The notes under the pieces: model-generated
The model's input: the letters and a program-made list of their open reading frames with translations, nothing else
Databases searched by the model: none
Told to the model about the DNA's origin: nothing
Translations under genes and position numbers: made by a program
Assembly: GCA_041664285.1 (NCBI GenBank)
Contig: JBAYLA010000005.1
Span: 1 to 62,539, forward strand
DNA: 62,539 nt
Direction: 5' to 3'
Origin: Minisyncoccota bacterium
Lineage (GTDB): Bacteria > Patescibacteriota > Minisyncoccia > Phycocordibacterales > UBA9973
Shown: one piece after another, positions 45,428 to 60,900 of the stretch
Layout of the letters: each line of letters begins with the position of its first letter
Numbering within the stretch: the stretch's first letter is position 1

Positions 45428-45555
45428 GATTGATTTTAAATGAGCGTAGCGAATATATAAAATCATCACCCAGTTAAATAAAATCCTTTGGATTTTAGCT
45501 TTTGCTTAGCAAAAGCTATTTAACGGGGTCAAAAAAAATATACTCACTTCGTTCG

Positions 45556-45900
45556 TTATTTTATAATATGATAATTTTTTTCATCAATATATCCAAACTT
45601 ATCTCTTGCTTTGATATTGATTATATTATATCCGGCAAGAAGTGCAATTGTTTCATCGAAGTTACCTTGTTCATCTATAGAAATTTCTCGGCCATCTAGG
45701 GTTAGATTTATTGCGTTTTTTGCATTACCGGTTATTTGTATTATATTTTCTGTTACTGTAGCTCCATCTACTAGATTTACATTTTTAATTTTTACACCAA
45801 ATATCAAATCTTTAGAACCTATAATTACATAAATAATAATTAAAATAAAAAAAAGAGAAAACCCTCCTATTTTAATTATTTTTTTTGTATTTTGATTCAT
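45556..45900 (-). CDS. Membrane-anchored protein with Ig-like beta-sandwich domain
   Basis: N-terminal TM followed by a G..V.....I.I.G.......L.L.G pattern. Confidence 0.5.
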   Translation of the reverse strand: MNQNTKKIIKIGGFSLFFILIIIYVIIGSKDLIFGVKIKNVNLVDGATVTENIIQITGNAKNAINLTLDGREISIDEQGNFDETIALLAGYNIINIKARDKFGYIDEKNYHIIK

Positions 45901-45910
45901 AATTGATTTT

Positions 45911-45976
45911 TAACGAACATAGTGAGTATAAAAATTATTTAACAAGGTCTTTAAAATATATTCACTTTGTTCATTA
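45911..45976. repeat. Inverted pair of the TATAYTCACTWYGTTCRTTA motif
   Basis: 45911-45930 taacgaacatagtgagtata and 45956-45976 atatattcactttgttcatta. Further copies at 45538-45558 and 55565-55584. Confidence 0.65.
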
Positions 45977-45978
45977 TT

Positions 45979-48189
45979 TTATACGACATTGTTACCATTT
46001 TCATCATGGGTAATTTTCTCCAATACTTCTCTAGGCTTGGCACCATCTCCAGGTCCAATGACCCCACGTTCTTCTAGACGATCCATTAATCGGGCTGCGC
46101 GAGCATAGCCCAATTTTAATTTTCTCTGGAGGTAAGAAGTTGAAGCTTTACCTGCTTCCATTACACAAATCCTAGCTTCCTCATACATTTCATCGTCATC
46201 ATTATCGTTGTCATCTTCTAGAGAACTTTCAAAAATACTTTTATCAGCCGAGATACTTCCAGCGGTTAGGGTAATTTCCTCAGAGACTTCATCTTCATAA
46301 GCATCTGCGAGATACTTTACCACTTTTTTAACTTCAGATTCGGAAATAAAGGCGCTTTGCAATCTCTCTGGTTGAGCTTCGCCCGAAGAATATAACATGT
46401 CACCAGCCCCTAAGAGTTTTTCTGCTCCACCAGCGTCTAAAATTGTGCGTGAATCTACTTGCGAAGACACCTTAAGCGCTACTCGAGCAGGAATATTTGC
46501 TTTAATTAAACCAGTGATGATATTTACTTCAGGACGCTGGGTAGAGAGTATCAAATGTATACCTACTGCTCTAGACATTTGGGCTAGTCGAACGATAGCG
46601 GATTCGAGTTCTCTTGGATAAGTACTCATGATGTCTGCCAATTCGTCTATTATAATAACAACATAGGGCATGCGGTCAGCATTAATTTCTTCTTCTTCCC
46701 CAACGCTGTTGGTTCTTTTCTTTTTTGGATTTTTATTGAATACATTACTATGATAAGACTCGATATCTCTCACAGACTCTGCTTCCAAGATGTCGTAACG
46801 ACGATCCATTTCTTTGGCTGCCCATTTTAAAGCTAGAATTGTTTTCTTCGCTTCAGTGATTACAGGGGTAAGTAAATGTGGAATATTATTATAAAGAGTG
46901 AGCTCTACGCGCTTTGGGTCTATTAAAATAAGCTTCAAATCATCTGGTCCATTTCTATACAAAAGGGAAGTAATCATAGAATGAATGGTGACAGATTTCC
47001 CAGAGCCTGTCGTTCCAGCTACTAGAATATGGGGCATTTTAGCTAGATTGCCGAAGACAGCTTTCCCAGAAATAGATCTTCCGAGGGCAGTTGTTAGAGG
47101 TTTAGGAGAATTTTGGAATTTATCATCAGAGAGGAGAGTGGCTAGGCCAACGATTGATTTTGATTTATTTGGAATTTCAATACCGACGAGGGACTTGCCT
47201 GGAATCGGTGCTTCTATGCGGATCGGGTGAGCAGCGAGGGAGAGGGCAAGATCATTTTGTAAACCAACGATGCGAGAAAGCTTCACTCCTTCGGCTGGCT
47301 TCAAAGCATAACGAGTCACCGTCGGTCCGATAGTTATTTCATCCATCTCTACTTCAATGCCGAAATTAGCCAAGGTGCGTTTGATAATATTTGCATTTGC
47401 TTTAATGTCGCCGGTATTTGGTTTACCTTTGTCTTCTTCAAGGAGAGAGAGTGGGGGAGGAACATAAGAACCAAGTCCGCTCTTTCTTTTTCTAATTGGC
47501 ATTTCTTCCTCTTCCTCTTCTTTTGTTTTGTTGAAACCTAAAGCCTTTTTAACTTTTTCTCCAGTAGTTTCTTTTTCCTCTTCCTCTTCTTCTGGTATAG
47601 ATTTTTCTACTTCTTTTATTTCGTCTTCATTTAAAGTTTCTTGAGCATTTTCGAGAGACTTTTTCTTTCTAAAGAAAGACCAAATTTTTGTAAACAAGGG
47701 AGCGAAGTTGGGCTTTACATCTAGCATCATTAAAATTGAAATTATTAAAATTGCTCCGAGTAAAACCAGACTGGCATATATATCAAAAAGAGAAACGAAG
47801 GGCGTAGATAATATTTTCCCCAATAATCCTCCTGCTTGATTGTCTATTCCTCCTGCTATTTCTATTATTCCGAGACTAGAGAGTAGGAACAGTATTCCAC
47901 TGATTGTGCGGGTCCATCCTATATCTGGTACTTCTGATTTTATAAATGAATATCCGAGTAAAATAAATAATGTTGGCAAAATAAAATAACCGATTGTGCC
48001 GAGCATCATTTTAGAAAAGTCATATAAAAACACACCGGCCTTTCCTGCGACATTCGCATAAGACATTAAAAAAAATAATGCTAGAACAAAAAAAATAACT
48101 GCGATAATTCCGTGCTTAGTGTGAGCTTTTAATCCCATTGCTACTTTTTTATCATTTTTACCATTCTTCCTGTTCTCGTTTTTCGCCAT
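45979..48189 (-). CDS. ftsK: DNA translocase FtsK/SpoIIIE
   Basis: N-terminal TM segments, acidic linker, GTTGSGKS Walker A, C-terminal gamma winged helix. Confidence 0.9.
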   Translation of the reverse strand: MAKNENRKNGKNDKKVAMGLKAHTKHGIIAVIFFVLALFFLMSYANVAGKAGVFLYDFSKMMLGTIGYFILPTLFILLGYSFIKSEVPDIGWTRTISGILFLLSSLGIIEIAGGIDNQAGGLLGKILSTPFVSLFDIYASLVLLGAILIISILMMLDVKPNFAPLFTKIWSFFRKKKSLENAQETLNEDEIKEVEKSIPEEEEEEKETTGEKVKKALGFNKTKEEEEEEMPIRKRKSGLGSYVPPPLSLLEEDKGKPNTGDIKANANIIKRTLANFGIEVEMDEITIGPTVTRYALKPAEGVKLSRIVGLQNDLALSLAAHPIRIEAPIPGKSLVGIEIPNKSKSIVGLATLLSDDKFQNSPKPLTTALGRSISGKAVFGNLAKMPHILVAGTTGSGKSVTIHSMITSLLYRNGPDDLKLILIDPKRVELTLYNNIPHLLTPVITEAKKTILALKWAAKEMDRRYDILEAESVRDIESYHSNVFNKNPKKKRTNSVGEEEEINADRMPYVVIIIDELADIMSTYPRELESAIVRLAQMSRAVGIHLILSTQRPEVNIITGLIKANIPARVALKVSSQVDSRTILDAGGAEKLLGAGDMLYSSGEAQPERLQSAFISESEVKKVVKYLADAYEDEVSEEITLTAGSISADKSIFESSLEDDNDNDDDEMYEEARICVMEAGKASTSYLQRKLKLGYARAARLMDRLEERGVIGPGDGAKPREVLEKITHDENGNNVV

Positions 48190-48195
48190 ACAGTT

Positions 48196-48204
48196 ATTTT
48201 AACA
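48196..48204 (-). promoter_or_regulatory. Extended -10 (TGtTAAAAT on the minus strand), 6 nt before ftsK ATG 48189
   Basis: Read directly. Confidence 0.55.
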
Positions 48205-48219
48205 TATTTTTATGAATTA

Positions 48220-48334
48220 AAAAGAAACAGAATTGTTGTTATTTGTAGTACAAATATTTCTTTGCTAAGAAATTTCTCAGGACTCGCGCCGTCGCGCTCC
48301 GTAGCCTGCAAATAGCAACAATTCTGTTTCTTTT
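48220..48334 (-). repeat. Two-hairpin repeat, copy 2, with its core (48246-48308) enclosed by a 26-bp stem
   Basis: Stem aaaagaaacagaattgttgttatttg / caaatagcaacaattctgtttctttt (one mismatch). Core contains gcgc cgtc gcgc. Confidence 0.75.
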
Positions 48335-48383
48335 AAAGTTGTGTCGAAAAATATTTTAGAAACTTGTCTTATTTCTGGAATAG

Positions 48384-48480
48384 CAAAGTATAGTTTAAAA
48401 ATGACTACGGAGACTGACGAGTCGAGTCTTGAGCAAAAATTCAGCAGAATTTTATGTGTGCTTTTTTAAACTATACTTTG
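48384..48480 (+). repeat. Two-hairpin repeat, copy 3, with its core (48402-48462) enclosed by a perfect 18-bp stem
   Basis: Stem caaagtatagtttaaaaa / tttttaaactatactttg. Core contains gact gacg agtc and aaaattc agca gaatttt. Confidence 0.75.
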
Positions 48481-48555
48481 TTCTTTCAGAAAAGAGACGC
48501 CGAAAAAAAGTTTTTAAACCCTTGCTTTTTTCTTTGTCCTATATATAATGGACAA

Positions 48556-49413
48556 ATGTTTAAGGAAGAAAAAAATGTAAAAGACTCCATAAAAGACACC
48601 TCTTCCGTGCCTGCACCGTACCAAGCCGTAGGGTTTGGCTTGGTGTCCTATACAAAAATCAATAAGCTTATTACTGCCCTTTATATGGTAACAGACATCA
48701 TAGACAAAGATGAACCACTTAGAAATAAATTAAGGACATTGGGGACGGGAATTATATCGGACATAAATTCTATTCCTTCCAATGCTCGTAGAAAGATATC
48801 CGAAATAATGTCCTTTTTAGACATTGCTTCTGCTGTAAATATTATTTCTGAAATGAATTGCTCTATTCTTAAAAAAGAGTTTATAGAATTAAGCGAATCT
48901 ATATTATCTATTCAAACAGAAAAAGACGTTGTTGAAAGCGAAATAAATAAACCGAATAGACCAATAAATTTATCTGAGTTTTTTGGAGATCATAATGGAG
49001 AGAAGTCTGATACTTACGAAGCCTCTCCTTTGTTAATGAGCAAGAAAGGAATTTCTATCGGACACCCTACCCCTACAAGGATTGGAGTTCAAAGAGGTAG
49101 TACTTTACTGAAAGCTTTGTCCGATAAAATTAATCCAAATATGAAAACTCAGAAATCACAGTTTTCTCACAATCAAGACTTTGATGCTTTTAAAAAACAA
49201 AGACGTAACGATATAATAAATATTATAAAAACCCTAGGAGGAAATGCCACAATAAAGGACATAAAGGACAAAGTCCAATCATCACAAGATAAAATTACTT
49301 CTCTCGTTTCTTGCAGTGAAAAAACTCTTCAAAGAGAACTTGTTTCTATGGTTAAAGACAGTGTCCTTAATAAAACAGGGGAGAAGCGTTGGAGTCGATA
49401 TTTTTTGAAATAG
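48556..49413 (+). CDS. Hypothetical protein with C-terminal winged-helix-like DNA-binding domain
   Basis: ATG 48556 sits 6 nt after TATAAT. C-terminus IINIIKTLGGNATIKDIKDKV...SEKTLQRELVSMV. Confidence 0.5.
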   Translation: MFKEEKNVKDSIKDTSSVPAPYQAVGFGLVSYTKINKLITALYMVTDIIDKDEPLRNKLRTLGTGIISDINSIPSNARRKISEIMSFLDIASAVNIISEMNCSILKKEFIELSESILSIQTEKDVVESEINKPNRPINLSEFFGDHNGEKSDTYEASPLLMSKKGISIGHPTPTRIGVQRGSTLLKALSDKINPNMKTQKSQFSHNQDFDAFKKQRRNDIINIIKTLGGNATIKDIKDKVQSSQDKITSLVSCSEKTLQRELVSMVKDSVLNKTGEKRWSRYFLK

Positions 49414-49918
49414 ATTTTTAAATCATTGAAAATTCTGCGGAGAGTTATGTATTAACGATTTACTTATTTACCACAATCTTTGCTTGCATTTTAACTAAAA
49501 ATGAAGTAAGATAGATTCATGGGTATTGGCTTAATAGCTAAGTTATCCACATAATATATTGCTATAATTTTTTGAGATATATTATAATGTGTTTATGTTT
49601 ACAAAGCGCACAGAACTTGTGTATTTTGTATTCATAAAGTTTATTTATTTTTATTCAGGATTTCGTCGAAAAAATCTTGAACGAAGATAGATTCCCTGCC
49701 AACTCTTTTATTAATTATAAAAAGTTTTGGTTGGGTAAAGAAAGGTCATTGAAAACCAAATAGCTATGTTTTCAATGTTAGTTTATCACTATTCGTTTTT
49801 TAATCCGCGACATTATAAATTATTATTAGTTATTAGCGGAGAGAAAAATGATAGGAAAAAAATACGCTTTTAGTTTTGTCGAAACTAATTAATGGCGTAA
49901 AAAAATTAGAAAAAATTT

Positions 49919-51973
49919 ATGAGTAAATTATTAAAATCAAAATTTCTTCTTGGAGCTTTGATTGTTACAGTTTTAGTTGTAGGAGGTGTTGCATTTATTG
50001 GTGCAGACACAGCTTCAGCTGATTGTACACTCACAGCTACATTAAGAGTAGGTTCAACAGGCGATGAAGTTAAATGTCTTCAGGCCGTAGTCGGAGCAAC
50101 TGCAGATGGTAAATTTGGTCCTATGACTAAGACCTCTGTTATGGCTTGGCAAGCAAATAATGGTTTAGTAGCCGACGGAGTAGTTGGTGCTAAGTCACGA
50201 GCTGTCTTCAATGCTGGTGGTGCAGTTTCTGGGAATTTCCCAGCAGGTTGTACTTCAGCTGCAGGATACAGTTCAACAACAGGTCTTGCTTGTGCAGCAT
50301 TGCCAGCAACTGGCCCTTGTACAGGTGGAGCATTATTTAATTCCGCAACTGGCGCAGCATGTTCTGTTGCAACTTCAACAGTCCCTGGTTGTGCAGTCGG
50401 AGCATTATTTAGTGCAACAACTGGCGCATCATGTACTGTAGCCCCAATAACTTCAACAGGTGAAGGTTCAATAGCACTTTCATATGCTCCAGTTCCTGGA
50501 AATACTACCCTTGTTTACAAGGGACAGAATAATCAGGCATTTATTGGTTTGCAAATGAAGGCTACTGGTTCTGATATGAAAGTTTCTCGTCTATGGTTAA
50601 ATTTTGATCAGCGCATTTGGCTTGCTGCTAACAACATCTCTCTTTGGGATGGTTCAACACAACTCGCTACTATCGCTCTTTCATCTTCAACCGTTATTGA
50701 GTATACAACTGGTTCAGAATGGCAAGTTCAATTTAATGGTCTAAACGTAGTTGTTCCAGTTGGAACGACTAAGACATTGACCGCTAAGTTTGATCGCCCT
50801 CTTTTGACACAGGATCTAACAGGTGCTACAGCTACTAATATGACCGCAAACAGTTCTATCAGGACAACTGATGGTTCTGGTTACTCTGAAGCAGTAACTC
50901 TTACCGCTCGAGTTATTAATTTTGTTACTTCAGCCTCAACAACAGGGGTAGAAACAGCTCAATTAAGTGCAACTAGTCCAGCAACTGGAATAGTTTCTGG
51001 CCTTAGTGCGACAGCAGGAACTCTAACTGATGTTAAAGTAACTGATTTCGACCTAAAGGCAACTCAATCAGATCTTAAGGTTACAAAAGTAGTGGGTGTA
51101 GTTAATTCTAGTGCTGCTACCTTGAAGAATATGGTGGCTTCAGTTCAACTTCGAGATGCTTCAGGAGCTATTCTTGCACAAGCCGCTCCAGCTCCAGCAA
51201 CTACAGCTAGTGGTTCTACTTCATCTTCCGGCGTAGCTTATACTTGTGGTGCTTATACTACTACTCTTAGTTGTTATCAATTTGATAGCTTGAATATTAG
51301 CATTCTTAAAGATACAACAACTAAATTATCAATTTGGGTTCAAATGAATCCTGTTGGTACTCCTGGTGCTGGATACACAACTTCTGGTACTGGAATTAGT
51401 GCAAATGTTACTGTATCAGCTGCTGGTATTGTTACCACAGATGCAAATTACAACGCTATTACTCCAACTGGAACTGTAACTGGAAACTACCAGTACATGT
51501 ATCAATATGGCCCAGCCATTGCTTACACTGGATCAAGTACACCAGTAGTTACTACCCCAGATTCTAGTTCTACTGCTCAGCAAATGACTGGTACTATGTC
51601 ATTTAGTGTTACAGCTAATGGAGAGGATAAATACCTTTCTGCTACTCCAGCTGATGGTACTACTGGTATTTTCTTGGAACAGCAAGTTGCCAATGGCACA
51701 CCTGCTACAACCGTATATACACTTTCTCAGTTGAGTACAACTTCTTCTGATGCTGTGTATGGTACTACCTCTGGTGTCTACAAGATTCCAGCTGGAACAA
51801 CAAAGAACTTTGTCACTTCTTACAAGATTACAGTGGCAACAGCAAATGGTTACAACGGAGCTAAATTAAAGACCTTTATGTTGACTAACAATGTAGATGG
51901 TTCTACTGATGCAGTTGATTATGCTTATGCATTACCAACAGCCGTTGGTCCACAAGCTTATATAAATAAATAA
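49919..51973 (+). CDS. Secreted surface protein: PG_binding_1-like domain, three Cys-loop modules, Thr/Ala/Ser-rich body
   Basis: Signal peptide. GSTGDEVKCLQAVVG..DGKFGPMTKTSVMAWQANNGLVADGVVG. CTSAAGYSSTTGLAC, CTGGALFNSATGAAC, CAVGALFSATTGASC. Confidence 0.75.
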   Translation: MSKLLKSKFLLGALIVTVLVVGGVAFIGADTASADCTLTATLRVGSTGDEVKCLQAVVGATADGKFGPMTKTSVMAWQANNGLVADGVVGAKSRAVFNAGGAVSGNFPAGCTSAAGYSSTTGLACAALPATGPCTGGALFNSATGAACSVATSTVPGCAVGALFSATTGASCTVAPITSTGEGSIALSYAPVPGNTTLVYKGQNNQAFIGLQMKATGSDMKVSRLWLNFDQRIWLAANNISLWDGSTQLATIALSSSTVIEYTTGSEWQVQFNGLNVVVPVGTTKTLTAKFDRPLLTQDLTGATATNMTANSSIRTTDGSGYSEAVTLTARVINFVTSASTTGVETAQLSATSPATGIVSGLSATAGTLTDVKVTDFDLKATQSDLKVTKVVGVVNSSAATLKNMVASVQLRDASGAILAQAAPAPATTASGSTSSSGVAYTCGAYTTTLSCYQFDSLNISILKDTTTKLSIWVQMNPVGTPGAGYTTSGTGISANVTVSAAGIVTTDANYNAITPTGTVTGNYQYMYQYGPAIAYTGSSTPVVTTPDSSSTAQQMTGTMSFSVTANGEDKYLSATPADGTTGIFLEQQVANGTPATTVYTLSQLSTTSSDAVYGTTSGVYKIPAGTTKNFVTSYKITVATANGYNGAKLKTFMLTNNVDGSTDAVDYAYALPTAVGPQAYINK

Positions 51974-52011
51974 TATTTATATAGCTCTGGTTAATACGCC
52001 TTAAAAAGTAT

Positions 52012-52047
52012 TCCTCCACAACCTTTCAGAAGTTGAAAGGTGTGCAG
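52012..52047. repeat. cccccacaccttt-family hairpin (short loop, 'empty')
   Basis: cacaacctttca gaagt tgaaaggtgtg. Confidence 0.6.
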
Positions 52048-52059
52048 GTAAAACAAAAA

Positions 52060-52084
52060 GCCATCCCGACGGGGATGGCTTTTT
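52060..52084 (+). terminator. Intrinsic terminator after the 49919-51973 gene
   Basis: gccatccc gacg gggatggc followed by TTTTT. Confidence 0.75.
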
Positions 52085-52112
52085 GTTTGTGTTTTTATGC
52101 TTAAAAAGTTAT

Positions 52113-52430
52113 CCCCCACACCTTTTGTTTTATTTAAGACTTTCGGAAATCCTTCTTTTTAACTGTCCAAGCGCTTTGCCATCTTTTTTAAGATTATATT
52201 CTCTAGTTCTAGCATCATTTTTATTAGCACAAGCTTCATAATATCTAAGTTCAAAAGGTCGCCTAGCTTTTGTTGAACGATTAAGGCCATTATTGTGTTC
52301 CGAAAGTCTTCGTTTCAGGTCATTAGTTGAGCCAATATATAACTTTTCATCTTTTAGACTTTTTAGAATATATACGTAATACATTATAACTATTATATGG
52401 CCTGAAGTTATAAAACGAAAGGTGTGGGGG
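52113..52430. mobile_element. GIY-YIG gene enclosed by 20-nt inverted arms of the cccccacaccttt family
   Basis: Arms 52113-52132 cccccacaccttttgtttta and 52411-52430 taaaacgaaaggtgtggggg (19 of 20 complementary). The left arm covers the stop codon. Confidence 0.45.
52130..52384 (-). CDS. Small GIY-YIG nuclease-superfamily protein
   Basis: YYVYILKSLKDEKLYIGSTNDLKRRLSEHN matches the GIY...YIG...R...H pattern. ATG 52384 preferred. Confidence 0.8.
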   Translation of the reverse strand: MYYVYILKSLKDEKLYIGSTNDLKRRLSEHNNGLNRSTKARRPFELRYYEACANKNDARTREYNLKKDGKALGQLKRRISESLK

Positions 52431-52541
52431 TTATCCACAGGTTATTTATTGTGTTAAATTTATATTTTTAGTGCTATACTATAATGTATAAATTACCGCT
52501 GAAGGTCGTTTTGGTGGTGAAAATATTTATTGTTCTAAAAA

Positions 52542-52562
52542 ATTATTATTATTATTATTATT
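52542..52562. repeat. (ATT)7 microsatellite upstream of the 52588 gene
   Basis: Seven perfect ATT units read directly. Confidence 0.9.
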
Positions 52563-52587
52563 AATTAACTTAATCTCGCACGGCGAG

Positions 52588-54735
52588 ATGAAAAAAATTA
52601 TGAAATTAAGTTTAAAAAATGTTTTTCTATCAGTCGGAATGCTTGCTTTTGCTTTAGGAGTATTTGGACTTGTCTCAACAAGTAAGGCAGAAGCATATGC
52701 TCGAACTGCATCTGTTTCAGGTGCTTGGGGTGATACAGCTACATGGGGGGGGAACTCTGTTCCTGTAGCAGGGGACACTGTTACAATCAATGCTGCTGTT
52801 ACAGTTAACATAGATGCAACTGCTGCTGCAACTTCGATTACTTTTATTGATCCAGCTGCTGGTGCTGGTAATGGAATTACCTTTACGGGTACAAATACCC
52901 TTACTGTTTCAGGAGCTATCACAGTTCCTCTCTCTTCAGGAGTTGGTACTACTACCATTGCTGTTGGGACTGGAACGCTTAGTGCTGGAAGTGTTAGTAT
53001 CACAGGAGGTGCTTCTGGTATTGGTTCGATGACTGTGGGCGATGGTAATATTACTACTACAGGAGATTTTTCTCTTCTTGGTGCTAGTGCTATTACAAAA
53101 GCCTTGCTTACTTCTACAGACGCTGGCAGTGTAATTAGTATAGGAGGAAATTTTGTTAACACATTAGGAACTGTTACAAATCTGGGAATAATGACAATCA
53201 CTGGTAATCTTACCGGAGGAGGAACTGTTGTTAACGGCGCCAATGCCGGTTTGTATCTTAATGGTACTACAAATACTGTTACCACTTTGACGGCTACAGC
53301 TGCAGGGAACTCAGTATTTTACGGAGGGGGGGATCAAACAATCATAGATACTGCTACTCACACCTATTACAATCTTTATTTGCAGGGTACTGGAACAAAA
53401 ACTATAACTGGTCTTACAACAATTACTGGCGGTTTAGTTATTGGGGGTACAGCGACTGTGACCACAGCAGCAAATATAACAATAGCGGCAACTCTTGGTG
53501 TTCAATCAGGCGCAACTTTGCACTTAGCTGGTTATAGTTTTGAAGTTGGAACAACTTCAAGCATTACTGGAACAGTAGATACAACATCTGCAACTGGTAC
53601 TAAAACTTTCACAGGATTGGTAACGGTTAACTCTGGTGGTTCATTTAGTCTTGCCGCACTTGATCCAGTTAATGTCTTTGGTGCAGGTATTACAAACAAT
53701 AGTGCTACGGCAGTAAATCTTGGAGCAGGAGGTACAACATTAACGGGTAATTTAGCAGGTACTGGAAATATAACTTTTGAGGGTGCATTAACAATTGCGA
53801 GTGGAACTACAACTAACAGCAATACTGGAACTGTTACAGTTACTGGAACATTGACTCTTACTGGTGCTTGGACACAAGCAGCTGGTTCAAGTCTTACTCT
53901 TCTTGCTACGACTGCAACAGATGGTGCTGGAGTTCTTACAACTACACTTGCTAACACCGTAACTTATGGTGGTGGTGCTCAAACAGTTTTGCTACCAGCA
54001 GCAGGTTATTATAATCTTACTTTAAGTGGAACTTTAGCAAAATCATTTCCAGCTAGTACGATTATAAATCAGACATTGACAGTTAATAGTGGAACGACAA
54101 TTACTTTATTAACTAGTAGTTTAAGTACTGCCAATAAACTTTATTTTGGAACAGCTTACCAAAAGAGAGGGACTTGGGGGGCAACTGCTGCAACTGCAAC
54201 TAATGAAACTGATACTTATTTCACTTCTGGGATAACATATCACATGACTGTTGCTGTAGGTCGTGCTACTGTTGACAGTGGTACAGGAGGAACTGGCACA
54301 ATAAATTGTATTTCTCCAGCAGTTCTTACAAACGGTGTTTGTAAAGCTCCAAACACAACTTCAGAAGTTGCACAGAGTCCTGTGCCTATAACAGTAGAAG
54401 TTGCTCCAGGAATCACTGAGACTACAATGTCTCCGGGTTGTTCTGGTGGAAATAAATACAATACATCTACAGGTGCTCTTTGCCAAAATACTATTGTTGC
54501 TATAGCTAAAGCTACCTATGACTTTGGCACTAAGACTCTCAAAAATGGTAGTAAAGGGGCAGCCGTGATGGAACTTCAGAGATTCTTGAATGATAAATTG
54601 AATCTTGGATTGATATTAGATGGCAAACTAGGACCTAAGACAATTGCTGTTATTAAGAAATGGCAAAAGGCTCAAGGGCTTGTAGTAGACGGTCTCGTTG
54701 GCCCAAAAACAAAGGCAATGATGAATGCTCAATAA
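52588..54735 (+). CDS. Secreted Gly/Thr-rich beta-helix-like surface protein with C-terminal Cys-loop and PG_binding_1-like domain
   Basis: Signal peptide. Degenerate GT..T.TG repeats. CSGGNKYNTSTGALC. GSKGAAVMELQRFLN...DGKLGPKTIAVIKKWQKAQGLVVDGLVG. Confidence 0.75.
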   Translation: MKKIMKLSLKNVFLSVGMLAFALGVFGLVSTSKAEAYARTASVSGAWGDTATWGGNSVPVAGDTVTINAAVTVNIDATAAATSITFIDPAAGAGNGITFTGTNTLTVSGAITVPLSSGVGTTTIAVGTGTLSAGSVSITGGASGIGSMTVGDGNITTTGDFSLLGASAITKALLTSTDAGSVISIGGNFVNTLGTVTNLGIMTITGNLTGGGTVVNGANAGLYLNGTTNTVTTLTATAAGNSVFYGGGDQTIIDTATHTYYNLYLQGTGTKTITGLTTITGGLVIGGTATVTTAANITIAATLGVQSGATLHLAGYSFEVGTTSSITGTVDTTSATGTKTFTGLVTVNSGGSFSLAALDPVNVFGAGITNNSATAVNLGAGGTTLTGNLAGTGNITFEGALTIASGTTTNSNTGTVTVTGTLTLTGAWTQAAGSSLTLLATTATDGAGVLTTTLANTVTYGGGAQTVLLPAAGYYNLTLSGTLAKSFPASTIINQTLTVNSGTTITLLTSSLSTANKLYFGTAYQKRGTWGATAATATNETDTYFTSGITYHMTVAVGRATVDSGTGGTGTINCISPAVLTNGVCKAPNTTSEVAQSPVPITVEVAPGITETTMSPGCSGGNKYNTSTGALCQNTIVAIAKATYDFGTKTLKNGSKGAAVMELQRFLNDKLNLGLILDGKLGPKTIAVIKKWQKAQGLVVDGLVGPKTKAMMNAQ

Positions 54736-54760
54736 ACTTTTAGAATTTTCTAAAGTTAAC

Positions 54761-54790
54761 AAAAAACCATACCCGCGGGTATGGTTTTTT
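54761..54790 (+). terminator. Intrinsic terminator after the 52588-54735 gene
   Basis: aaccatacccgcgggtatggtt flanked by an A6 and a T6 run. Confidence 0.75.
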
Positions 54791-54799
54791 GATTTGTGA

Positions 54800-54844
54800 T
54801 ATACCCCCACACTTATTTTGATTTTAAATAAGTGTGGGGGTATA
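54800..54844. repeat. Perfect 19-bp hairpin of the cccccacac family
   Basis: tatacccccacacttattt tgatttt aaataagtgtgggggtata. Confidence 0.8.
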
Positions 54845-54852
54845 ATCAAGCT

Positions 54853-54942
54853 ATGCTTTGTAAACATTTTTTTAAGGTTTTAACAATTTTTTTAGCAATG
54901 ATTATTTTAGGACTAATAGGAATTTCTGTACTTGCAAAATAG
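54853..54942 (+). CDS. Candidate 29-aa hydrophobic peptide (MLCKHFFKVLTIFLAMIILGLIGISVLAK)
   Basis: ATG lies 6 nt after TATAAT (54841-54846), the same spacing as many genes here. One TM-like segment. No other support. Confidence 0.3.
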   Translation: MLCKHFFKVLTIFLAMIILGLIGISVLAK

Positions 54943-55001
54943 AAAAGCCTGCCCCGTAGCGAGCTTGCTCTGCTACTGGGGTTGTGCTATATTAAATAAA
55001 T

Positions 55002-55023
55002 CCCCACACTTAAATATAAGTGT
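55002..55023. repeat. Degenerate cccccacac-family hairpin
   Basis: ccccacactta aata taagtgt. Confidence 0.4.
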
Positions 55024-55087
55024 TCGGATAAACCGCAGAGAAGATAGGTTCCAATTTTCGGGAACGTAGCGACTAGAAAATTGAGAA

Positions 55088-55141
55088 TCCTGTTAAATAA
55101 TTTTTGTTTTACAAAAATTGCCCGAAGGGCATTTAACAGGA
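55088..55141. repeat. Compound hairpin with arms tcctgttaaat / atttaacagga ('empty' version of the arms around GIY-YIG 55282-55557)
   Basis: 11-bp outer stem. Inner hairpins aatttttgt ttt acaaaaatt and gccc gaa gggc. Confidence 0.7.
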
Positions 55142-55212
55142 CACTCAAAATTTATAGTCATTTCATTCCTTAAATGTTGGTGTAAGTCCTATTTAGTGGG
55201 TCGATATTCTAG

Positions 55213-55232
55213 CGGCTAAAAGCCGTTTTTTT
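55213..55232 (+). terminator. Possible terminator in the 54.8-55.3 kb non-coding stretch
   Basis: cggct aaa agccg followed by T7. Confidence 0.4.
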
Positions 55233-55267
55233 AGTTTAAAATAAGGAGCGCTAGCGAATATATTTTA

Positions 55268-55557
55268 TTTAACCCTGTTAAATGATTTCAAATAAGAAGG
55301 AATTTTACTACATTTATGTTTTAAAATCTTCGAAGGATAATAACTTTTATGTTGGTTATACCGAAAATTTGAAATCAAGATTTAAGCAACATTCAAAAGG
55401 TCACGTTATTTCTACTAAATTACGTCGACCATTAGAATTAATTTACTCTGAAGTTTGTTTAGATAAAAAAGATGCCATGCATCGTGAGAAATATCTAAAA
55501 ACTTATCATGGTAAATTATTTCTTAGAAACCGGCTTAAATCTTATTTAACAGGGTAA
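55268..55557. mobile_element. GIY-YIG gene enclosed by inverted arms ...aaccctgttaaat / atttaacagggt...
   Basis: The left arm (55268-55283) covers ATG 55282. The right arm (55544-55557) covers the TAA stop. Confidence 0.4.
55282..55557 (+). CDS. Small GIY-YIG nuclease-superfamily protein
   Basis: FYYIYVLKSSKDNNFYVGYTENLKSRFKQHSKG. Confidence 0.8.
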   Translation: MISNKKEFYYIYVLKSSKDNNFYVGYTENLKSRFKQHSKGHVISTKLRRPLELIYSEVCLDKKDAMHREKYLKTYHGKLFLRNRLKSYLTG

Positions 55558-55594
55558 CAATTTTTATATTCACTTCGTTCATTAAAAATTAGCT

Positions 55595-56074
55595 ATGTTA
55601 CAAAAATCAAAAAAAGAAGAAATGATCAAAGAATTAGAAGGAGCCATCAAAGGTTCTGAGTCTTTAGTCTTTGTGAATTTTCATGGTTTGAAAGTAAGTG
55701 ATGAAACAACTCTTCGTAAAAATCTTCGAGATCAGGGGATAAAATACAAAGTGGGGAGAAAGACATTACTTAAACGTGCGCTTACTGGTAAGGCTACAGG
55801 AGAAATCCCAGAGCTTGCTGGAGAAGTGGCTATTGCCTATTCTAAAGATCCAATAGCAGGAGCTCGCGAGATTTTTAATTTTCAAAAAACTCATAAAGGG
55901 GTACTAAGTATCTTGGGGGGTATTTTTGAAGGTAAATTTGTTGGGGGAGAGAAAATGACAGAAATAGCAATGATCCCAAGTCGTGAAGTTCTCTATGCTC
56001 AGTTTGTTAACCTTATCAATTCTCCAATTCAGCGTTTGGCAGTTGTTTTGGATCAAATAGCAAAGAAAGCCTAA
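55595..56074 (+). CDS. rplJ: Ribosomal protein uL10
   Basis: Family-typical sequence, directly upstream of rplL. Confidence 0.9.
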   Translation: MLQKSKKEEMIKELEGAIKGSESLVFVNFHGLKVSDETTLRKNLRDQGIKYKVGRKTLLKRALTGKATGEIPELAGEVAIAYSKDPIAGAREIFNFQKTHKGVLSILGGIFEGKFVGGEKMTEIAMIPSREVLYAQFVNLINSPIQRLAVVLDQIAKKA

Positions 56075-56098
56075 ATTTTATTAAATATAAACTTTTTT

Positions 56099-56166
56099 AG
56101 GGTACAGATTTTTTGAAGCTTAAAAAATCCTGAAGTTCTCGCGCCGTCGCGCTCGAAACCCCCTTA
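56099..56166 (-). repeat. Two-hairpin repeat, copy 4 (between rplJ and rplL)
   Basis: Shares ctcgcgccgtcgcgctc with copy 2 and aaaaaatcctgaagtt (reverse complement) with copy 1. Confidence 0.7.
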
Positions 56167-56216
56167 AAAAGTTATGTTTCAACAAAATTTATAATTAAAA
56201 ATTAATTTAAAATTAT

Positions 56217-56582
56217 ATGTCAGAAAAATTTGAAAAACTTATAAAAGAAATAGAAACAATGTCAGTTCTTGATCTTCACGAACTTGTCAAAGCTTTAGAA
56301 GAAAAGTTTGGAGTATCAGCTGCCGCTGTGGCCGTAGCTGGTCCCGCAGCTGGTCCTGCTGAGGAAGAGAAGGATTCATTTACTGTTGTGCTTGCATCTG
56401 CTGGTGAGCAGAAAATTGCAGTGATGAAAATCGTTAAAGAAGTACTTGGTCTTGGATTGAAAGATGCTAAAGATTTAGTAGATGCTGCTCCAGGAACTCT
56501 TAAAGATGGAATGAAGAAAGCTGAAGCTGAAGATTTGAAGAAAAAAATCGAAGAAGTTGGAGGGAAAATTGAGCTTAAATAA
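56217..56582 (+). CDS. rplL: Ribosomal protein bL12 (L7/L12)
   Basis: Ala/Pro hinge [17 protein letters not shown] and [24 protein letters not shown]. Confidence 0.93.
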
Positions 56583-56590
56583 CTCAATTT

Positions 56591-56665
56591 TCGACCCGCA
56601 GATGCGTCGGCATCGAGGGCCGGCTTGCACAAAAATTCAGCAGAATTTTATGCGCAAGGGGCGAG
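56591..56665 (+). repeat. Two-hairpin repeat, copy 5 (downstream of rplL)
   Basis: gatgc gtcg gcatc. caaaaattcagcagaattttatg is identical to copy 3. Confidence 0.7.
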
Positions 56666-56691
56666 TTAAAATAATAAAATAGTATTAAAAA

Positions 56692-56717
56692 ACGGACGCC
56701 TAGCGTCCGTTTTTTTA
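56692..56717 (+). terminator. Intrinsic terminator after rplL
   Basis: acggacgc cta gcgtccgt followed by T7. Confidence 0.8.
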
Positions 56718-56719
56718 TA

Positions 56720-56747
56720 TTGACAAAACAAAAAGAAAGAGTATAAC
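56720..56747 (+). promoter_or_regulatory. Sigma-70-like promoter: TTGACA, 16-nt spacer, TATAAC, 8 nt before ATG 56756
   Basis: Read directly. Confidence 0.6.
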
Positions 56748-56755
56748 ATTAGTAT

Positions 56756-57904
56756 ATGAAGAAAAATACATTAATTTTATCTATTTCTATTTTAGCCTTA
56801 ATTTGCTTTAGTTTTTTGGGTTTTAACACTGCGGGTGCGTATGATTCAGGCTGTATTGGGTCTAATTTGTATAGCATTACCACTGGGCAACTTTGTAGTA
56901 CCCAATATGGTTATTCCAGTTATAATAATTATTCCAATAACTATAGCTATGGATGTACTGCTGGCGAACTATATAATATTTACACCGGACAACTTTGTAG
57001 TAATCAATATGGTTATAATAATAATTATTCCAATAACTATAGCTATGGATGTACTGCTGGCGAACTATATAATATTTACACTGGACAACTTTGCAATACT
57101 CAATATGGTTATTCTAATAATTACGGTTATAACTATAATAATTATTCCAATAACTATAGCTATGGATGCACTTCTACTGGACCATTTAACATAATCACTG
57201 GACAACTTTGCAATACATCACAATACTCAAATTCTTACCAAAATATTTACCCTTACTACAACCAAGCTCCAGTTATTTCTGGAGTTAATGGGCCACACTC
57301 ATTAAATGTAAATCAAATAGGGACTTGGACTGTGTTGGTTTCTAATATAAATACTAGTGGAAATCTTTCTTATTCAATCAATTGGGGTGACCAGCCACTT
57401 TATGCTTATGGGATAAATAATTCTTCTGTTTATTTACCTCAACAAAATGCAACCTTTACGCATACTTACACACAAGCAGGGACTTATACACCAGTCTTTA
57501 CTGTGACGAATAGCAATGGGCAATCTGCTACTACTAGTTTAAGTGTAGTGGTTAGTGGATCATCGATTAATTACGGTGCCCCTGTTATTTATTCAATTTC
57601 TCCAACTTCTGGAAGAATTGGTACTCAGGTTACAATATCTGGAACAGGTTTTGCTTATAATCCTTATTATAATAGTGGTGGTGTTACAACAAATACTATT
57701 AACTTTGGTGGAAGTATCATTCAGAATGTGTATTCTTATAACGGTGCTAACCTAACTTTCACTGTTCCGTCAAATTTAAACACTTGTTACTCGGGCCAGT
57801 ATTGTTCTCAAATATATTCACCAGTTGTTCCTGGAACTTATTCGATTTCCGTTACAAACACAAATGGTATTTCTAACATAATTTACTTTACGGTAACTTA
57901 CTAG
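56756..57904 (+). CDS. Secreted protein: tandem Tyr/Asn-rich Cys-loop repeats, PKD-like and IPT/TIG-like domains
   Basis: Signal peptide. Four to five CxxGxxYxIxTGQLC modules. NWGD...FTHTYTQAGTYTPVFTVTN. ISPTSGRIGTQVTISGTGF. Confidence 0.75.
   Translation: MKKNTLILSISILALICFSFLGFNTAGAYDSGCIGSNLYSITTGQLCSTQYGYSSYNNYSNNYSYGCTAGELYNIYTGQLCSNQYGYNNNYSNNYSYGCTAGELYNIYTGQLCNTQYGYSNNYGYNYNNYSNNYSYGCTSTGPFNIITGQLCNTSQYSNSYQNIYPYYNQAPVISGVNGPHSLNVNQIGTWTVLVSNINTSGNLSYSINWGDQPLYAYGINNSSVYLPQQNATFTHTYTQAGTYTPVFTVTNSNGQSATTSLSVVVSGSSINYGAPVIYSISPTSGRIGTQVTISGTGFAYNPYYNSGGVTTNTINFGGSIIQNVYSYNGANLTFTVPSNLNTCYSGQYCSQIYSPVVPGTYSISVTNTNGISNIIYFTVTY
56848..57215 (+). repeat. Coding tandem repeats (96-nt period between the two best copies)
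   Basis: attccaataactatagctatggatg recurs at 56931, 57027 and 57144. Copies 1 and 2 are nearly identical. Confidence 0.85.
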
Positions 57905-57938
57905 CTTTATTTATTACATATTTTATAATATCAGGTAT

Positions 57939-60900
57939 ATGAAAAAATATACATTGTTTGGGTTTGTTTTATTCGTTACATTATTTAGTTTTAACGTAAA
58001 TTCTCTCAGTGCAGCATCTATTGGTGGAGCAACTACTTCAGGTTGTCTGGCGGGGGATATGTTTAGTCGAACTACTGGTCAGGCTTGTGGTACTGTTTCA
58101 ACATCAGTCACTTGTCCTTCTGGTGATGTGTTTAGTTCAGTGACCGGACAACGTTGTAATGAATGGTACGATAATTCTAACTCATCAGGCTTGACACAGT
58201 TTCGTAATTTATTTCAAAGTTGGTTTAAAGTGGGAGCAAGCAGTACTAGCATTAAACCACTTCAACAATTTTTAAAAGATCAAGGTTATTACTTTGGGAA
58301 AATTGATGGTAAATATGGGAGAATAACCGATCGAGCGGTAAGAGATTTTCAAGGAGATAATAATTTGGCTAGCGGGTCAACATCAATATCAACAACAACA
58401 TCAACACCAGTATCAACCTCAACTTGTTCATCTTATACTTTTGATTCAACAACAGGGGACCCTTTGCCTTGTGGATGTAAGTCAACTTCTGGATTTAGTT
58501 GGATAGATGGTACTTCTTGTGCAGCAGCGAAAATAACTCATCTCAATCCTGCTTTAGCAGCGACTGGTAGTATGGTTGAAGTTTATGGCTCAAACTTTAA
58601 TAATACTTCCTGGGTTTCTATTGGTGGTGCTCCTATGGCTGTTGGTACTAAGAGGGTTATTCCAAGTTCGTATACAAATACATCACTAAGTTTTGTAATT
58701 CCAGCTGACATGGCGCCTGGCACCTATAAACTTTTTGTAGCAAATAGATTAAGTAGTGGAGATTTCCCAAGTAATTCAGTATTACTTACTGTAATTACAA
58801 AAACTTCTACTTGTTCATCTGGTGGATTTGATTCAGCTACTGGTTTCCGTTGTGGCTGTACTTCAATTACAGGCTTTAGTTCAGTAGATGGTACGTTTTG
58901 TGGAACTTCTATTTTTATTAGCACTCCCTCTTTACTTCCTAATGCAAAAGCAGGAAGTACGTATCTGACGACCTTAGATGTTTCTAGCGAGGTATCTACG
59001 AATAATTTATATTGGTCTGTGATTAGTGGTAGTTTGCCAACAGGACTAATTATCTCTGCTAGTGATTTAGGTGCAATTATTACAGGGACACCATCTGTTG
59101 CAGGAACATATACATTTACTCTTCAAGCATCTGATTCAGCTTTAGCTGCTTCTTCTGGTGATAAATCTGTAAGTAAGCAATTTACCTTAACCGTGGATTC
59201 AGCGACAACAACTCATATAATGCCTATTCTTTCTCCAAGTGGTGGAGAACAATGGGATATTGGCTCTACTCATACTATACAATGGCAATCTTCATCAGCT
59301 CCTAGTGATGCACATGTTTATTTAGAGGCTCTTTTACCAAGCGGGCAATGGGTTGTAATTAATGGTGCTGGTAATCTACTTCCAGCAACAGGTTCTTACG
59401 CGTGGACTATTCCCTCCACTATTTATAGTGCTGGTGAAGGAACTTTCTATTTTTATCAAGGAACAAATTATAAAATTAGAGCTGTTCTTGTAACGCCTAG
59501 TGATCCTAGCCAATACATAAGTACCGTAAGTAACTCATTTACTATAATTTCTGAAAAAACCCTTTGTTCAACTAGTAGTGATTGTTTGAGTGGACAGATT
59601 TGTGGTAGCAGTGGAATGTGTGTAGCAAATACTGCAACCGTTGTTAATGGTGTTTGTGGATCTGCAACGGCTTCACAATTAAGTGCTCCAACAATAGCAG
59701 TGACCTCTCTTTGCAGTACCGGTACTCTTGGAGCATTGGTTGGAGCATCTACATCATTAAATACTTGGACATGGAATTGTCTTGGATTAAATGGTGGAAC
59801 AACTGCTTCTTGTAGTGTTCCAAAAGTTGGAGCAAGCACTTCTATTATGCCTATCACCAACACCTCTCTTACAAAAGGCACAGTTGGAATTTCTTATACT
59901 GAATATCTCCAAACAGGAGCAGCTGGTCTTTATACTTGGTCAGCCACAGGATTACCAACAGGATTAAGCCTAACTGGCAATACAATTTCTGGCACTCCGA
60001 CTGTTGCCGGCACCTATACAGTAAATGTTACTTTGACTTCAACTTCAAGCAGCAGCGTAACACCAGGTTCTAAACAATTAACTCTTACCATAGATCCTGC
60101 AACAACTATTACCGCTGGTGTATGCGGATCTTTAAATGGAACATCAATTGCAGCTATCCCTCCTACTCTTGGAGCAACAAGTCAGTGTTCTGCAGGAACA
60201 GCCTCTGTATTTTCTGGATCTGGTCCTTGGACATGGACTTGTGCTGGATCAAATGGTGGAACAACTGCTTCCTGTAGTGTTTCAAAAACAGGCACAACTA
60301 CAGCGACTATTGGCCAATGTGGTTCTTCAAGTGGTAAAAATTTCACGAGTGTTCCAACATCCAATCTTTGCTCTGCAGGAACAGCTTCTTCTGTTACTGG
60401 AAGTGGTGCTAGTTCTAGTCCGTGGCTTTGGACTTGTACTGGAACTCTGGGCTACTCTGGTTGCAGTGCTTTAAAAACAAATACTACAACAACAACGAGC
60501 GGGGGTACAACTACTACTGGTGGATGTGGTTCTGCCTTAGGGGGGACATTCAGTTCTGCTCCAACAAGTGGGCTGTGTATACAAGGGTTTACTCCCGATA
60601 CTGTATATAGATTTTCAGATTCTAAATGGACATGGAATTGTAACAGCAACAGTGGTGGTATGGACTGGGGTTGTGGGGCAACAGCTACTGGTGTTCTCGG
60701 TGCAGAATCCTTTCACTTTACCCAATTCCTAGAACAAGGTTCAACTGGAAATGAGGTTATGGAATTACAAAAATTCCTAAAAAAAGCAGGGTATGATGTA
60801 GGAAATATTGATGGAATTTTTGGCCCTAAAGTTAAATTAGCCTTAATTACATTCCAGATTGTAAATCACTTAAAAGGTGATGGAATTGTAGGATCTGAAG

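Follow-up and report, generated by a model that had tools for sequence, protein, structure and literature searches.

Why does a small nuclease gene lie exactly between the two halves of a palindrome? The question is raised by a contig of 62,539 nucleotides from a Minisyncoccota bacterium (JBAYLA010000005.1; hereafter the window, meaning the whole stretch of DNA analysed), in which the gene for a GIY-YIG nuclease of 84 amino acids (g1) is enclosed by two arms that are near-perfect inverted copies of each other. A first-pass annotation of the window had suggested that the gene was inserted into, or moves together with, a palindromic element, or that short hairpins found nearby are non-autonomous relatives or target sites. 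We found that the arms, a promoter and g1 are one small selfish DNA element (element 1), of a kind that is widespread in Patescibacteria. It is firmly shown that this is a unit of ~320 bp with inverted ends and a 4-bp duplication, that it has gene-less derivatives and insertion polymorphism, and that its nuclease gene is under selection. The nuclease itself is probably the enzyme that mobilises the element, acting on a hairpin or cruciform. The parts of element 1, in order along the window, are as follows.

52109-52112: left copy of TTAT (target-site duplication), repeated at 52431-52434 and single in the related locus L255
52113-52133: left terminal inverted repeat, CCCCCACACCTTTTGTTTTAT, which holds the stop codon of the nuclease gene and where homology to other loci begins
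52130-52384, minus strand: g1, gene for a single-domain GIY-YIG nuclease (Pfam PF01541, E=5e-20)
52385-52409, minus strand: predicted internal promoter region, between the right arm and the ATG
52410-52430: right terminal inverted repeat, ATAAAACGAAAGGTGTGGGGG, placed by the inverted repeat, the edge of homology and the pairing of the arms
52431-52439, plus strand: right TTAT (52431-52434) and then CCACA, together the pre-existing target TTATCCACA, as seen in the empty site of L255

A repeat finder applied to the window returned arms of 24 nt (52110-52133 and 52410-52433) that are 92% complementary and 276 nt apart; the 20-mers originally reported pair at 19 of 20 positions, as can be read directly from the sequence. 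We delimit element 1 as the 318 bp from 52113 to 52430, inside the TTAT pair. The list of open reading frames (ORFs) and Pfam confirmed that the sole ORF enclosed by the arms is that of g1 (52130-52384, minus strand), with its stop codon (TTA on the plus strand, 52130-52132) falling within the left arm. The layout is therefore compact: 4-bp duplication, 21-bp inverted end, promoter, gene with its stop in the other end, and 4-bp duplication. A predicted -10 box (TATAAT) is at 52392-52397 on the minus strand, which puts the -35 position inside the right arm, at its inner end. Because this -10 box is only 7 nt 5' of the ATG, the g1 mRNA is predicted to be leaderless or nearly so. The sequence catataat is kept 8-10 nt upstream of the ATG in ~20 cassettes (gene plus arms).

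The arms could be coincidental or purely regulatory (an operator and a terminator, for example) and form no structural unit with the gene. They do overlap the promoter region and the stop codon, and nearby hairpins lie beside terminators and -10 boxes. We scanned one genome per GTDB species for homologues and recovered 80 loci, in which 90 GIY-YIG ORFs were located; here and throughout, the comparison data are metagenome assemblies. The upstream flank of each ORF was aligned with the reverse complement of its downstream flank, and the scores were compared with those of 1,789 controls taken elsewhere in the same loci. Arms scoring above the 99th percentile of the controls were found around 74% of the 90 homologous ORFs (Patescibacteria), in the same register: the start of the downstream arm precedes the end of the stop codon by ~4 nt, and 0-25 nt separate the upstream arm from the ATG. 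This register is constant across proteins down to 54% identity. The outer tip of the arm is conserved as CCCCCACACC, or as CCCGCACAC, CCCCGCACC and similar sequences in more distant proteins, and the inner part is variable. In addition, the window has five exact copies of the 9-mer CCCCCACAC, compared to ~0.06 expected (an estimate from base composition). Because of this excess and the arms around most of the homologous ORFs, the arrangement is far beyond chance. Together with the sharp homology boundaries, duplications and empty sites described below, the arms of the homologues refute the coincidental or regulatory explanation, to which we give almost no weight.

The family is large, with 933 clusters (50% identity) at E<=1e-10, and the proteins closest to those of the window are labelled Nomurabacteria, Paceibacterota or Patescibacteria. 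Look-ups of the exact proteins g1, g2 (a second GIY-YIG protein of the window, below), ribosomal protein L10 and a 684-aa neighbour matched the source contig alone (ENA ERZ27249449 k141_383635).

Locus L255 provides an empty site for element 1. Both flanking surface-protein genes have orthologues there, as does rplJ, and the GIY-YIG gene is absent. The site in L255 reads uninterrupted GTTATCCACAGG, with a single TTAT, and the window has GTTAT, the arms and gene, and TTATCCACAGG at the same position. In wider context, L255 reads ...ATAGTTATCCACAGG..., compared to ...AAGTTAT[52113-52430]TTATCCACAGG in the window. Further out, the spacer of L255 reads ...gattataGTTATCCACAGGtatcaac..., and with 52013-52048 and 52113-52434 cut out, the window is colinear with it at 75% identity, through AAGTTATCCACAG. 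L255 thus lacks the arms as well as the gene and has only one TTAT; therefore, the gene and arms of element 1 were inserted as one. Of the two histories first proposed for the palindromic element, mobilisation together with the gene is supported by this empty site and by homology edges in ~40 loci. Insertion of the gene into a pre-existing hairpin is not needed to explain element 1, as the empty site has no hairpin. None of the related genomes compared at the locus had the gene with unrelated flanks, and g2 proved to be flanked by arms too.

The direct repeat noted upstream of the left arm is present (52000-52026 and 52100-52126; 81% identity over 27 nt). We considered the repeated sequence CTTAAAAAGT(T)AT, before the elements at 52000 and 52100, as a part of the unit and rejected it. 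It lies outside the unit because L255 has one copy, adjoining the empty site of a 36-nt gene-less copy (52013-52048, below).

The same boundaries were found in other genomes. When positions 45000-62539 of the window were compared with the 80 loci by blastn, ~40 loci had one match, mostly starting at 52110-52116 and ending at 52429-52441. Beyond that one match, this part of the window was almost without other matches in those loci. Copies with >90% protein identity are found in unrelated contexts, with two pairs within single genomes (L003/L005 and L004/L008), and 14 of the 80 loci have two or three copies within 8 kb. Loci L007, L010 and L014 have common flanks and the same duplicated site, and the cassette in L007 is inverted compared to that in the other two. 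Relative to the asymmetric TTAT|CCACA target, the gene of the window is oriented oppositely to those of L002 and L004. These alignments suggest either that the segment flips between its inverted ends or that it inserts in both orientations.

Two other comparisons for empty sites were tried. L002 was rejected as an empty site for the g2-type copy of L008: the difference is cassette-sized, and the spacer is too diverged for a junction. The comparison of L004 with L072 is only suggestive, with a common atttgTAAA.

It is possible that the system is a domesticated host function that is not currently mobile, like SsnA/NTS in Neisseria or RAYT/REP, with nuclease and hairpins retained by the host, perhaps for restricting incoming single-stranded DNA in natural transformation, and that the insertions are all ancient. 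The contig encodes DNA-uptake machinery (ComEC, PilB-like and PilC-like proteins, and pilins), purifying selection on the nuclease is strong, one sub-group of homologues is in conserved synteny, and the insertion common to L007, L010 and L014 (inverted in one) is shared even though the flanks are only ~70% identical. However, locus L204, with an L10 protein 99% identical to that of the window, differs from it by three element-sized insertions or replacements within 600 bp. The >90%-identical copies in unrelated contexts, twice within single genomes, also indicate movement, and a pseudogenised copy exists (L072). We see only a slim chance that domestication is the whole explanation, and a host function would be compatible with a mobile element rather than exclusive of it.

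We looked for target duplications in 1.06 Mb of DNA, consisting of the window, the 80 GIY-YIG loci and 80 L10 loci (below). An exact 4-nt direct repeat flanked 41 of 79 inverted-repeat pairs with tips of this kind, compared to 0 of 79 at an offset control, and 16 different tetranucleotides were duplicated among those pairs. The duplication was present in 25/49 pairs with the gene and in 16/30 pairs without it. Fixing the boundary at the C-run gave an exact 4/4 duplication in 22 of 47 cassettes, whereas 2.2 were expected by permutation; several of the non-matching cassettes are one-base boundary shifts. The duplications vary by locus and include TTAT, ATAA, TTGA, CAAA, TAAA, TTCA and others.

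The sites of insertion are not random. We reconstructed 40 empty sites and scored the match to CCACA beside the duplication. At least three of five positions matched in 30 sites (18% of random positions), at least four in 12 (2.5% of random positions) and all five in seven (0.1% of random positions). The target TTAT^CCACA resembles the junction between the duplication and the arm tip. New copies often abut old ones, with the same tetranucleotide between them (L012, L023, L024 and L073). Because the target is tip-like and new copies abut old ones in this way, we suggest that the factor recognising the tip also picks the target.

The 9-mer TTATCCACA is the textbook consensus of a DnaA box and usually appears as AGTTATCCACA. 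It is present in the window at 49543, 52431 and 61574, and at 85 sites in the 1.06 Mb. We considered a titration role for it as a DnaA box. It is ~8 times more common than base composition predicts, an excess that is inflated because ~30 of the 85 sites are orthologous copies of one coding site. Roughly 19 of the 85 directly adjoin an element end.

The window also contains at least five gene-less copies, and there are 30 in the 1.06 Mb of related DNA. They are 25-140 bp and have the same tips and the same 4-nt duplications as the full element. Those of the window are listed here, each with the z score of its fold as single-stranded DNA; the short hairpins fold far better than shuffled sequence (z -4.3 to -7.9).

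5378-5427: 50-nt gene-less copy within a pilin-like ORF, whose reading frame it keeps; TTTA duplicated at 5374-5377 and 5428-5431; z -5.5
52013-52048: gene-less 36-nt hairpin, CCTCCACAACCTTTC...GAAAGGTGTGCAGG, missing in the colinear spacer of L255; z -4.3
54804-54840: gene-less 37-nt copy with a perfect stem and a TATA duplication (54800-54803 and 54841-54844); z -7.7
55000-55029: degenerate gene-less copy, ATCCCCACACTTA...TAAGTGTTCGGAT, upstream of rplJ and absent from L204; z -6.1
55049-55182: gene-less copy of the element-2 type (below), with a hairpin at 55081-55098 and 55131-55148, in a variable loop upstream of rplJ; z -7.9

The first four of these correspond to the short-loop hairpins of the first-pass annotation, all of which are strong folds as single-stranded DNA. 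[quoted passage not shown] Loci L240 and L244 (74 nt), and L218 with a related copy, read aaagagTTAT[ctcccacac...gtgtgggag]TTATccacacagg at the end of a coding sequence, and eight empty orthologues of this site read aaagagTTATccacacagg. Gene-less copies have inserted into the -10 box of the cassette itself in L003 (TCATA duplicated) and in L013 (TATA duplicated, by the sub-type of 52013-52048), compared to ~20 uninterrupted cassettes. The gene-less copies retain the first and last few bases of the gene (e.g., ...AAATGATTT and AAATCT...).

Gene-less copies of the window lie in a -10 box, in the candidate leader of rplJ and, in frame, in a prepilin leader. The copy at 54804-54840, which has a 19-bp perfect stem if the TATA flanks are counted, splits an extended -10 box. 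The uninterrupted box, gtgatataat or gtgctataat, precedes the same small-peptide gene in L219-221, L225, L239 and L247-252. In the pilin-like ORF (5347-5823), element plus duplication add 54 nt, or 18 codons, to the prepilin leader. Computed removal of the insert at 5378-5427 restores KGFMVVEV, with the prepilin-type motif G|F...E; this is predicted from the ORF of the window alone. The insertion regenerates GFMVVE at its right junction, such that only the leader peptide is lengthened. The place of the copy at 55049-55182 is occupied by just caaacaa in L204, and similar gene-less copies are present in L223 and L230.

The small-peptide gene (ORF 54854-54943) encodes a hydrophobic peptide of 29 aa, MLCKHFFKVLTIFLAMIILGLIGISVLAK, and many related loci conserve this ORF upstream of the rplJ region. 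The 37-nt element interrupts its extended -10 box in L204 as well as in the window.

A second full element is present in the window upstream of rplJ.

55238-55574, plus strand: sister element 2, with the gene g2 between longer, different arms; homology to L008 spans 55238-55569

The gene g2 (55282-55557, plus strand) encodes a GIY-YIG protein of 91 aa that is 51% identical to g1. Its arms, of about 31 nt (~55253-55283 and ~55544-55574), have a core, CCCTGTTAAAT / ATTTAACAGGG, that overlaps the start and stop codons, and a short hairpin sharing this core lies 130 nt upstream (55081-55098 and 55131-55148). Both g1 and g2 have their own inverted repeat and hairpin; therefore, there are two diverged nucleases here, each with its own arms and short hairpin.

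We compared the region upstream of rplJ in the 80 loci recovered with the L10 protein. A g2-type cassette was found at the same site, between a terminator-like hairpin and the rplJ start codon, in seven of them. An eighth (L272) has a truncated gene fragment only, with the upstream side unmatched. About five are gene-less with the same long arms (L210, L223, L230 and L233, and a variant in L232), and the remainder are empty. The presence of element 2 does not track the similarity of L10: it is absent from L204 (99% identical) and present in loci with 71-79% identity. We rejected L204 as an empty site for element 2. Its spacer has been replaced by a different module of ~120 nt, indicating turnover with no clean junction. 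Relative to L204, the window has three extra or replaced segments within 600 bp.

Relatives thus show an empty site, a gene-less hairpin or a full cassette upstream of rplJ, and at element 2 it is possible that the gene was inserted into a hairpin already there. More generally, short palindromes, either of the host or similar to repetitive extragenic palindromic (REP) sequences, could have existed first, with a GIY-YIG invader akin to a homing endonuclease cutting them and being copied into the loop by repair using homology of the arms. This is consistent with the gene-less hairpin and the full cassette having the same arms at the pre-rplJ site, with cassettes and gene-less copies often being adjacent, and with g2 proteins being 79-89% identical between genomes compared to 71-79% for the neighbouring L10. 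In contrast, at the empty site of element 1 there is no hairpin, the arms and the gene are absent together, and the filled site has the duplication. Gene-less copies keep the terminal bases of the gene, as derivatives made by internal deletion would, and arms of ~21 bp are very short for recombinational repair. We therefore think that homing into hairpins is quite improbable as the general explanation.

The ~120-nt segment has inverted repeats at its boundaries, AACTTTTTTAGGG...CCCCCTTAAAAAGTT. It is located between rplJ and rplL in the window (56078-56198) and upstream of rplJ in L204 (276-393), L208 and L209, and is another small module that moves or has been rearranged. Also 5' of rplJ is a conserved and apparently structured region (window 54985-55233, interrupted; intact in L205:1440-1545 and in most of L204-L283) consisting, in order, of CCGCAGAGAAGATAGG, a variable hairpin, TAAGTCCTATTTAGTGGGTCGATAT, a variable hairpin, a terminator-like stem and a T-run. 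In the window, the variable loops host two small elements. This region had no match in Rfam, even at E<=1, and Rfam and tRNA scans of the window found nothing. We suggest that it is a candidate leader or attenuator for L10 of Patescibacteria.

PF01541 spans nearly the whole of the g1 and g2 proteins. An AlphaFold model of g1 (pLDDT 79.6) has the GIY-YIG fold, and its best matches are UPF0213 BH0048, Slx1 and the catalytic domain of I-TevI. None of the catalytic positions (GIY, YIG, Arg, His and Glu) varies among 47 homologues, and among 19 copies the ratio of nonsynonymous to synonymous divergence (dN/dS) was ~0.08, with dS ~1.1, indicating strong purifying selection. The g1-type copy in L072 (3953-4272) has intact arms, a TAAA duplication and in-frame stops in the nuclease gene; this is a decaying copy. 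Some relatives (e.g., P0253, P0270, P0294 and P0338) are 200-480 aa, with an N-terminal GIY-YIG domain and extra sequence, and could be fusions or read-through gene calls.

Pairing of the two arms is maintained as their sequence varies. With the arms anchored at their tips, positions 12-21 were paired in 61-97% of 38 distinct elements, compared to 30-55% with partners taken from other elements. Pairing was kept to position ~21 and was at background by position 22. Because there are two to four types of pair per position and pairing is above the background from other elements, pairing, and not sequence alone, appears to be the conserved feature of the arms. It should act on DNA, because the promoter lies between the upstream arm and the ATG and that arm is outside the mRNA. 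For the same reason we rejected pairing at the level of RNA, whether as a closed mRNA or with the ORF looped out from a ribozyme stem, since transcription of the gene leaves out the upstream arm. Divergence of the arm tips tracked divergence of the proteins (Mantel r 0.52, 0/2000 permutations).

The contig also encodes genes for DNA uptake and pili (1808-7597 and 12785-14284), including PilB-like T2SSE, PilC-like T2SSF, pilin-like ORFs and a ComEC 'Competence' protein, as well as RecJ, RecO, SSB and RecA. The uptake machinery would matter if incoming single-stranded DNA is a substrate of the nuclease, as it is for SsnA.

How might such an element move? In the reading that we favour, the element inserts as a unit into new sites and leaves a 4-bp target duplication, with a preference for TTAT, TTTA or TATA followed by CCACA, which mimics its own tip. 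Gene-less derivatives of 25-140 bp arise from it. The GIY-YIG protein would recognise the stem formed by both ends in single-stranded or cruciform-extruded DNA, like Ssn, and would cut where the stem begins, at its base, as well as in targets that resemble the tip; joining would be done by host replication, repair or ligation. We infer that the cutting is done by this protein and not by an unlinked enzyme, that a hairpin is the substrate, and how the strands are rejoined.

Several points weigh against this scheme. GIY-YIG proteins are hydrolytic nucleases and, to our knowledge, none carries out strand transfer, and a 4-bp duplication is a classical sign of staggered integration of the transposase type. 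The role in cutting that we propose for this family is read from sequence. A distant transposase gene is possible, as 62.5 kb of the source genome was covered. Simple linkage would also make arms and protein diverge together. Split arms could not be detected around roughly a quarter of the homologues, and the copies of L027, L028, L033, L034, L038, L040 and L054 look vertically inherited rather than mobile. These seven copies, 61-69% identical to g1, are in conserved synteny at one position and are flanked by complete hairpin elements (28, 69-70 and ~136-138 nt) instead of split arms; they may be domesticated or fixed.

The most direct alternative is that these are ordinary MITEs moved by an unlinked conventional transposase (e.g., a DDE enzyme making 4-bp duplications), and that the GIY-YIG gene is cargo or a domesticated nuclease for single-stranded DNA. 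Terminal inverted repeats with a 4-bp duplication are products of DDE enzymes, gene-less copies are common, GIY-YIG chemistry does not explain the joining, and the contig is ~6% of the source genome. However, no called gene of the 62.5-kb contig has a transposase-type Pfam domain on record, and in 0.6 Mb we found no element of greater length with these ends that could carry a conventional transposase. The gene is fitted to the ends, with its stop in one arm and its -35 in the other, in a register kept down to 54% identity, and the nuclease is under strong purifying selection. One genome has two diverged nucleases, each with its own arm family, and the arms co-vary instead of keeping a fixed protein-binding sequence. 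We regard an unlinked transposase as unlikely.

If the nuclease is the mobilising enzyme, then the element could belong to a previously unrecognised class of bacterial transposable element that encodes a minimal GIY-YIG nuclease and no other protein. It would be a 'nuclease-only' insertion sequence of ~320 bp that mobilises itself and its gene-less derivatives. The protein would make structure- and sequence-specific cuts at the base of the hairpin or cruciform and at TTAT^CCACA targets, and host enzymes would do the joining. We put forward this stronger proposal tentatively.

Should the nuclease drive movement, this would be a new enzymatic route to transposition and would bring down the size limit for an autonomous mobile element. 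A nuclease-only insertion sequence would be the smallest autonomous DNA transposon known, would give Ssn- and UPF0213-like GIY-YIG proteins a function in mobility, and would tie the hairpin-specific Ssn nucleases for single-stranded DNA (2025) to a selfish-element origin. The finding bears on annotation, as the family is now labelled just 'GIY-YIG nuclease family protein'. In genomes of ~1 Mb, the gene-less copies change promoters, coding sequences and a candidate ribosomal-protein leader. Many homologues are on contigs of ~1 kb, which would fit repeats breaking assemblies. Each pair of nuclease and arms is also a candidate sequence-specific DNA tool.

Parts of this element are found in several known systems. 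Free-standing homing endonucleases such as Seg proteins and I-TevI have a GIY-YIG catalytic domain, spread selfishly and are patchily present at a conserved site, as element 2 is upstream of rplJ. In contrast, they have a separate DNA-binding domain and spread by recombination, without inverted ends or duplications, whereas the g1 protein is a single domain of 84 aa and its gene has inverted ends and a duplication.

The terminal inverted repeats, short duplication, multiple contexts, polymorphism between filled and empty sites, short non-autonomous derivatives and occasional insertions in frame or in promoters are all features of insertion sequences and MITEs. The difference is that the sole encoded protein is, by Pfam, a GIY-YIG nuclease and not a DDE, HUH, serine or tyrosine enzyme. 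In addition, the smallest classical insertion sequences, IS200 and IS1, are ~700-770 bp, and a unit of ~320 bp is less than half of that. Rickettsia palindromic elements are short palindromes tolerated in frame within coding genes, as in the pilin-leader insertion, but no associated nuclease is defined for them in our sources.

REP sequences (and REPINs, their paired form) with REP-associated tyrosine transposases (RAYTs) are also similar. There is a small nuclease gene and flanking inverted palindromic repeats that are dispersed genome-wide, some lineages are seemingly vertical, and recognition is thought to be of a single-stranded hairpin. A RAYT is an HUH Y1 enzyme that cuts and rejoins, and we know of no target duplications flanking REPINs. 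Here, Pfam and the fold search gave GIY-YIG only, and a 4-bp duplication is present.

Among solved structures, the best matches by sequence and fold were UPF0213 proteins (YazA / BH0048 / EF2693) and the Slx1 domain: 1zg2 (E=3.6e-6) and 1ywl (E=0.0025) by sequence, and 1zg2, 4xlg and 1ywl by fold. Bacillus subtilis yazA was matched at 42% identity by tblastn. The similarity to UPF0213 BH0048 is comparable to that to the Ssn homologue of Aurantiacibacter (L178, below). Slx1 is structure-selective, acting on branched DNA and junctions. However, neither flanking inverted repeats nor mobility has been described for UPF0213, and Slx1 has extra domains and needs Slx4. A tblastn search of 72,556 plasmids gave just three weak matches of the UPF0213 type, and a profile-based scan of IMG/VR viruses found no relative. 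A study of horizontal gene transfer in Patescibacteria lists a GIY-YIG protein among the transferred genes (PMC12455944).

The closest known systems appear to be the Ssn nucleases with their SRM/NTS hairpins, a resemblance that falls short of established family membership. In the literature, taken from an incomplete library, we found no prokaryotic GIY-YIG element with inverted ends and duplications beyond the Ssn paper. Ssn is a single-domain GIY-YIG protein of ~94 aa (cd10448) that binds the NTS/SRM hairpin flanking its own gene and makes site-specific cuts in single-stranded DNA beside the hairpin, even with the hairpin halves on separate strands, but cuts neither double-stranded DNA nor RNA (Chenal et al., Nat Commun 2025, PMC11893778). 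The variant of the repeat differs from one homologue to the next, and the authors proposed the family as sequence-specific DNA tools and remarked on the layout NTS-ssnA-NTS, which is like that of an insertion sequence, and on the analogy to RAYT/REP (PMC11893778). Our proteins (84 and 91 aa) are likewise single GIY-YIG domains, near the ~85-105 aa of this group, and their genes are bracketed by inverted copies of a repeat that is also found as hairpins elsewhere in the 62.5-kb window and in related DNA. The locus L178 (Aurantiacibacter) is a genuine Ssn example, with NTS on both sides, and g1 and g2 are 33% identical (~70 aa) to its NTS-flanked protein, with a profile-profile probability of 96.6% (hhalign).

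There are also differences. Each flank of an Ssn gene is a complete small hairpin, whereas here each flank is half of one palindrome, with the gene in the 'loop'. The SRM motif, HGTCWYN(0-2)YYVSBRHN(0-5)WNVSBRGN(0-2)RNCYNB, had 0 matches on both strands of the window, and in the control, L178, it matched both flanks. A Trp-rich C-terminal extension (KKWNRAWK...NPxWRDL) is present in the Ssn homologues that we compared (Aurantiacibacter and Sphingomonadales relatives) and missing from the Patescibacteria proteins. No target duplications, empty sites or preference for tip-like targets were reported for Ssn, and the main text of that paper does not contain 'target site', 'duplication' or Patescibacteria (PMC11893778). 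The two layouts are bridged within Patescibacteria, by the sub-group of homologues (e.g., L033 and L054) in which the syntenic gene has a complete hairpin on both sides.

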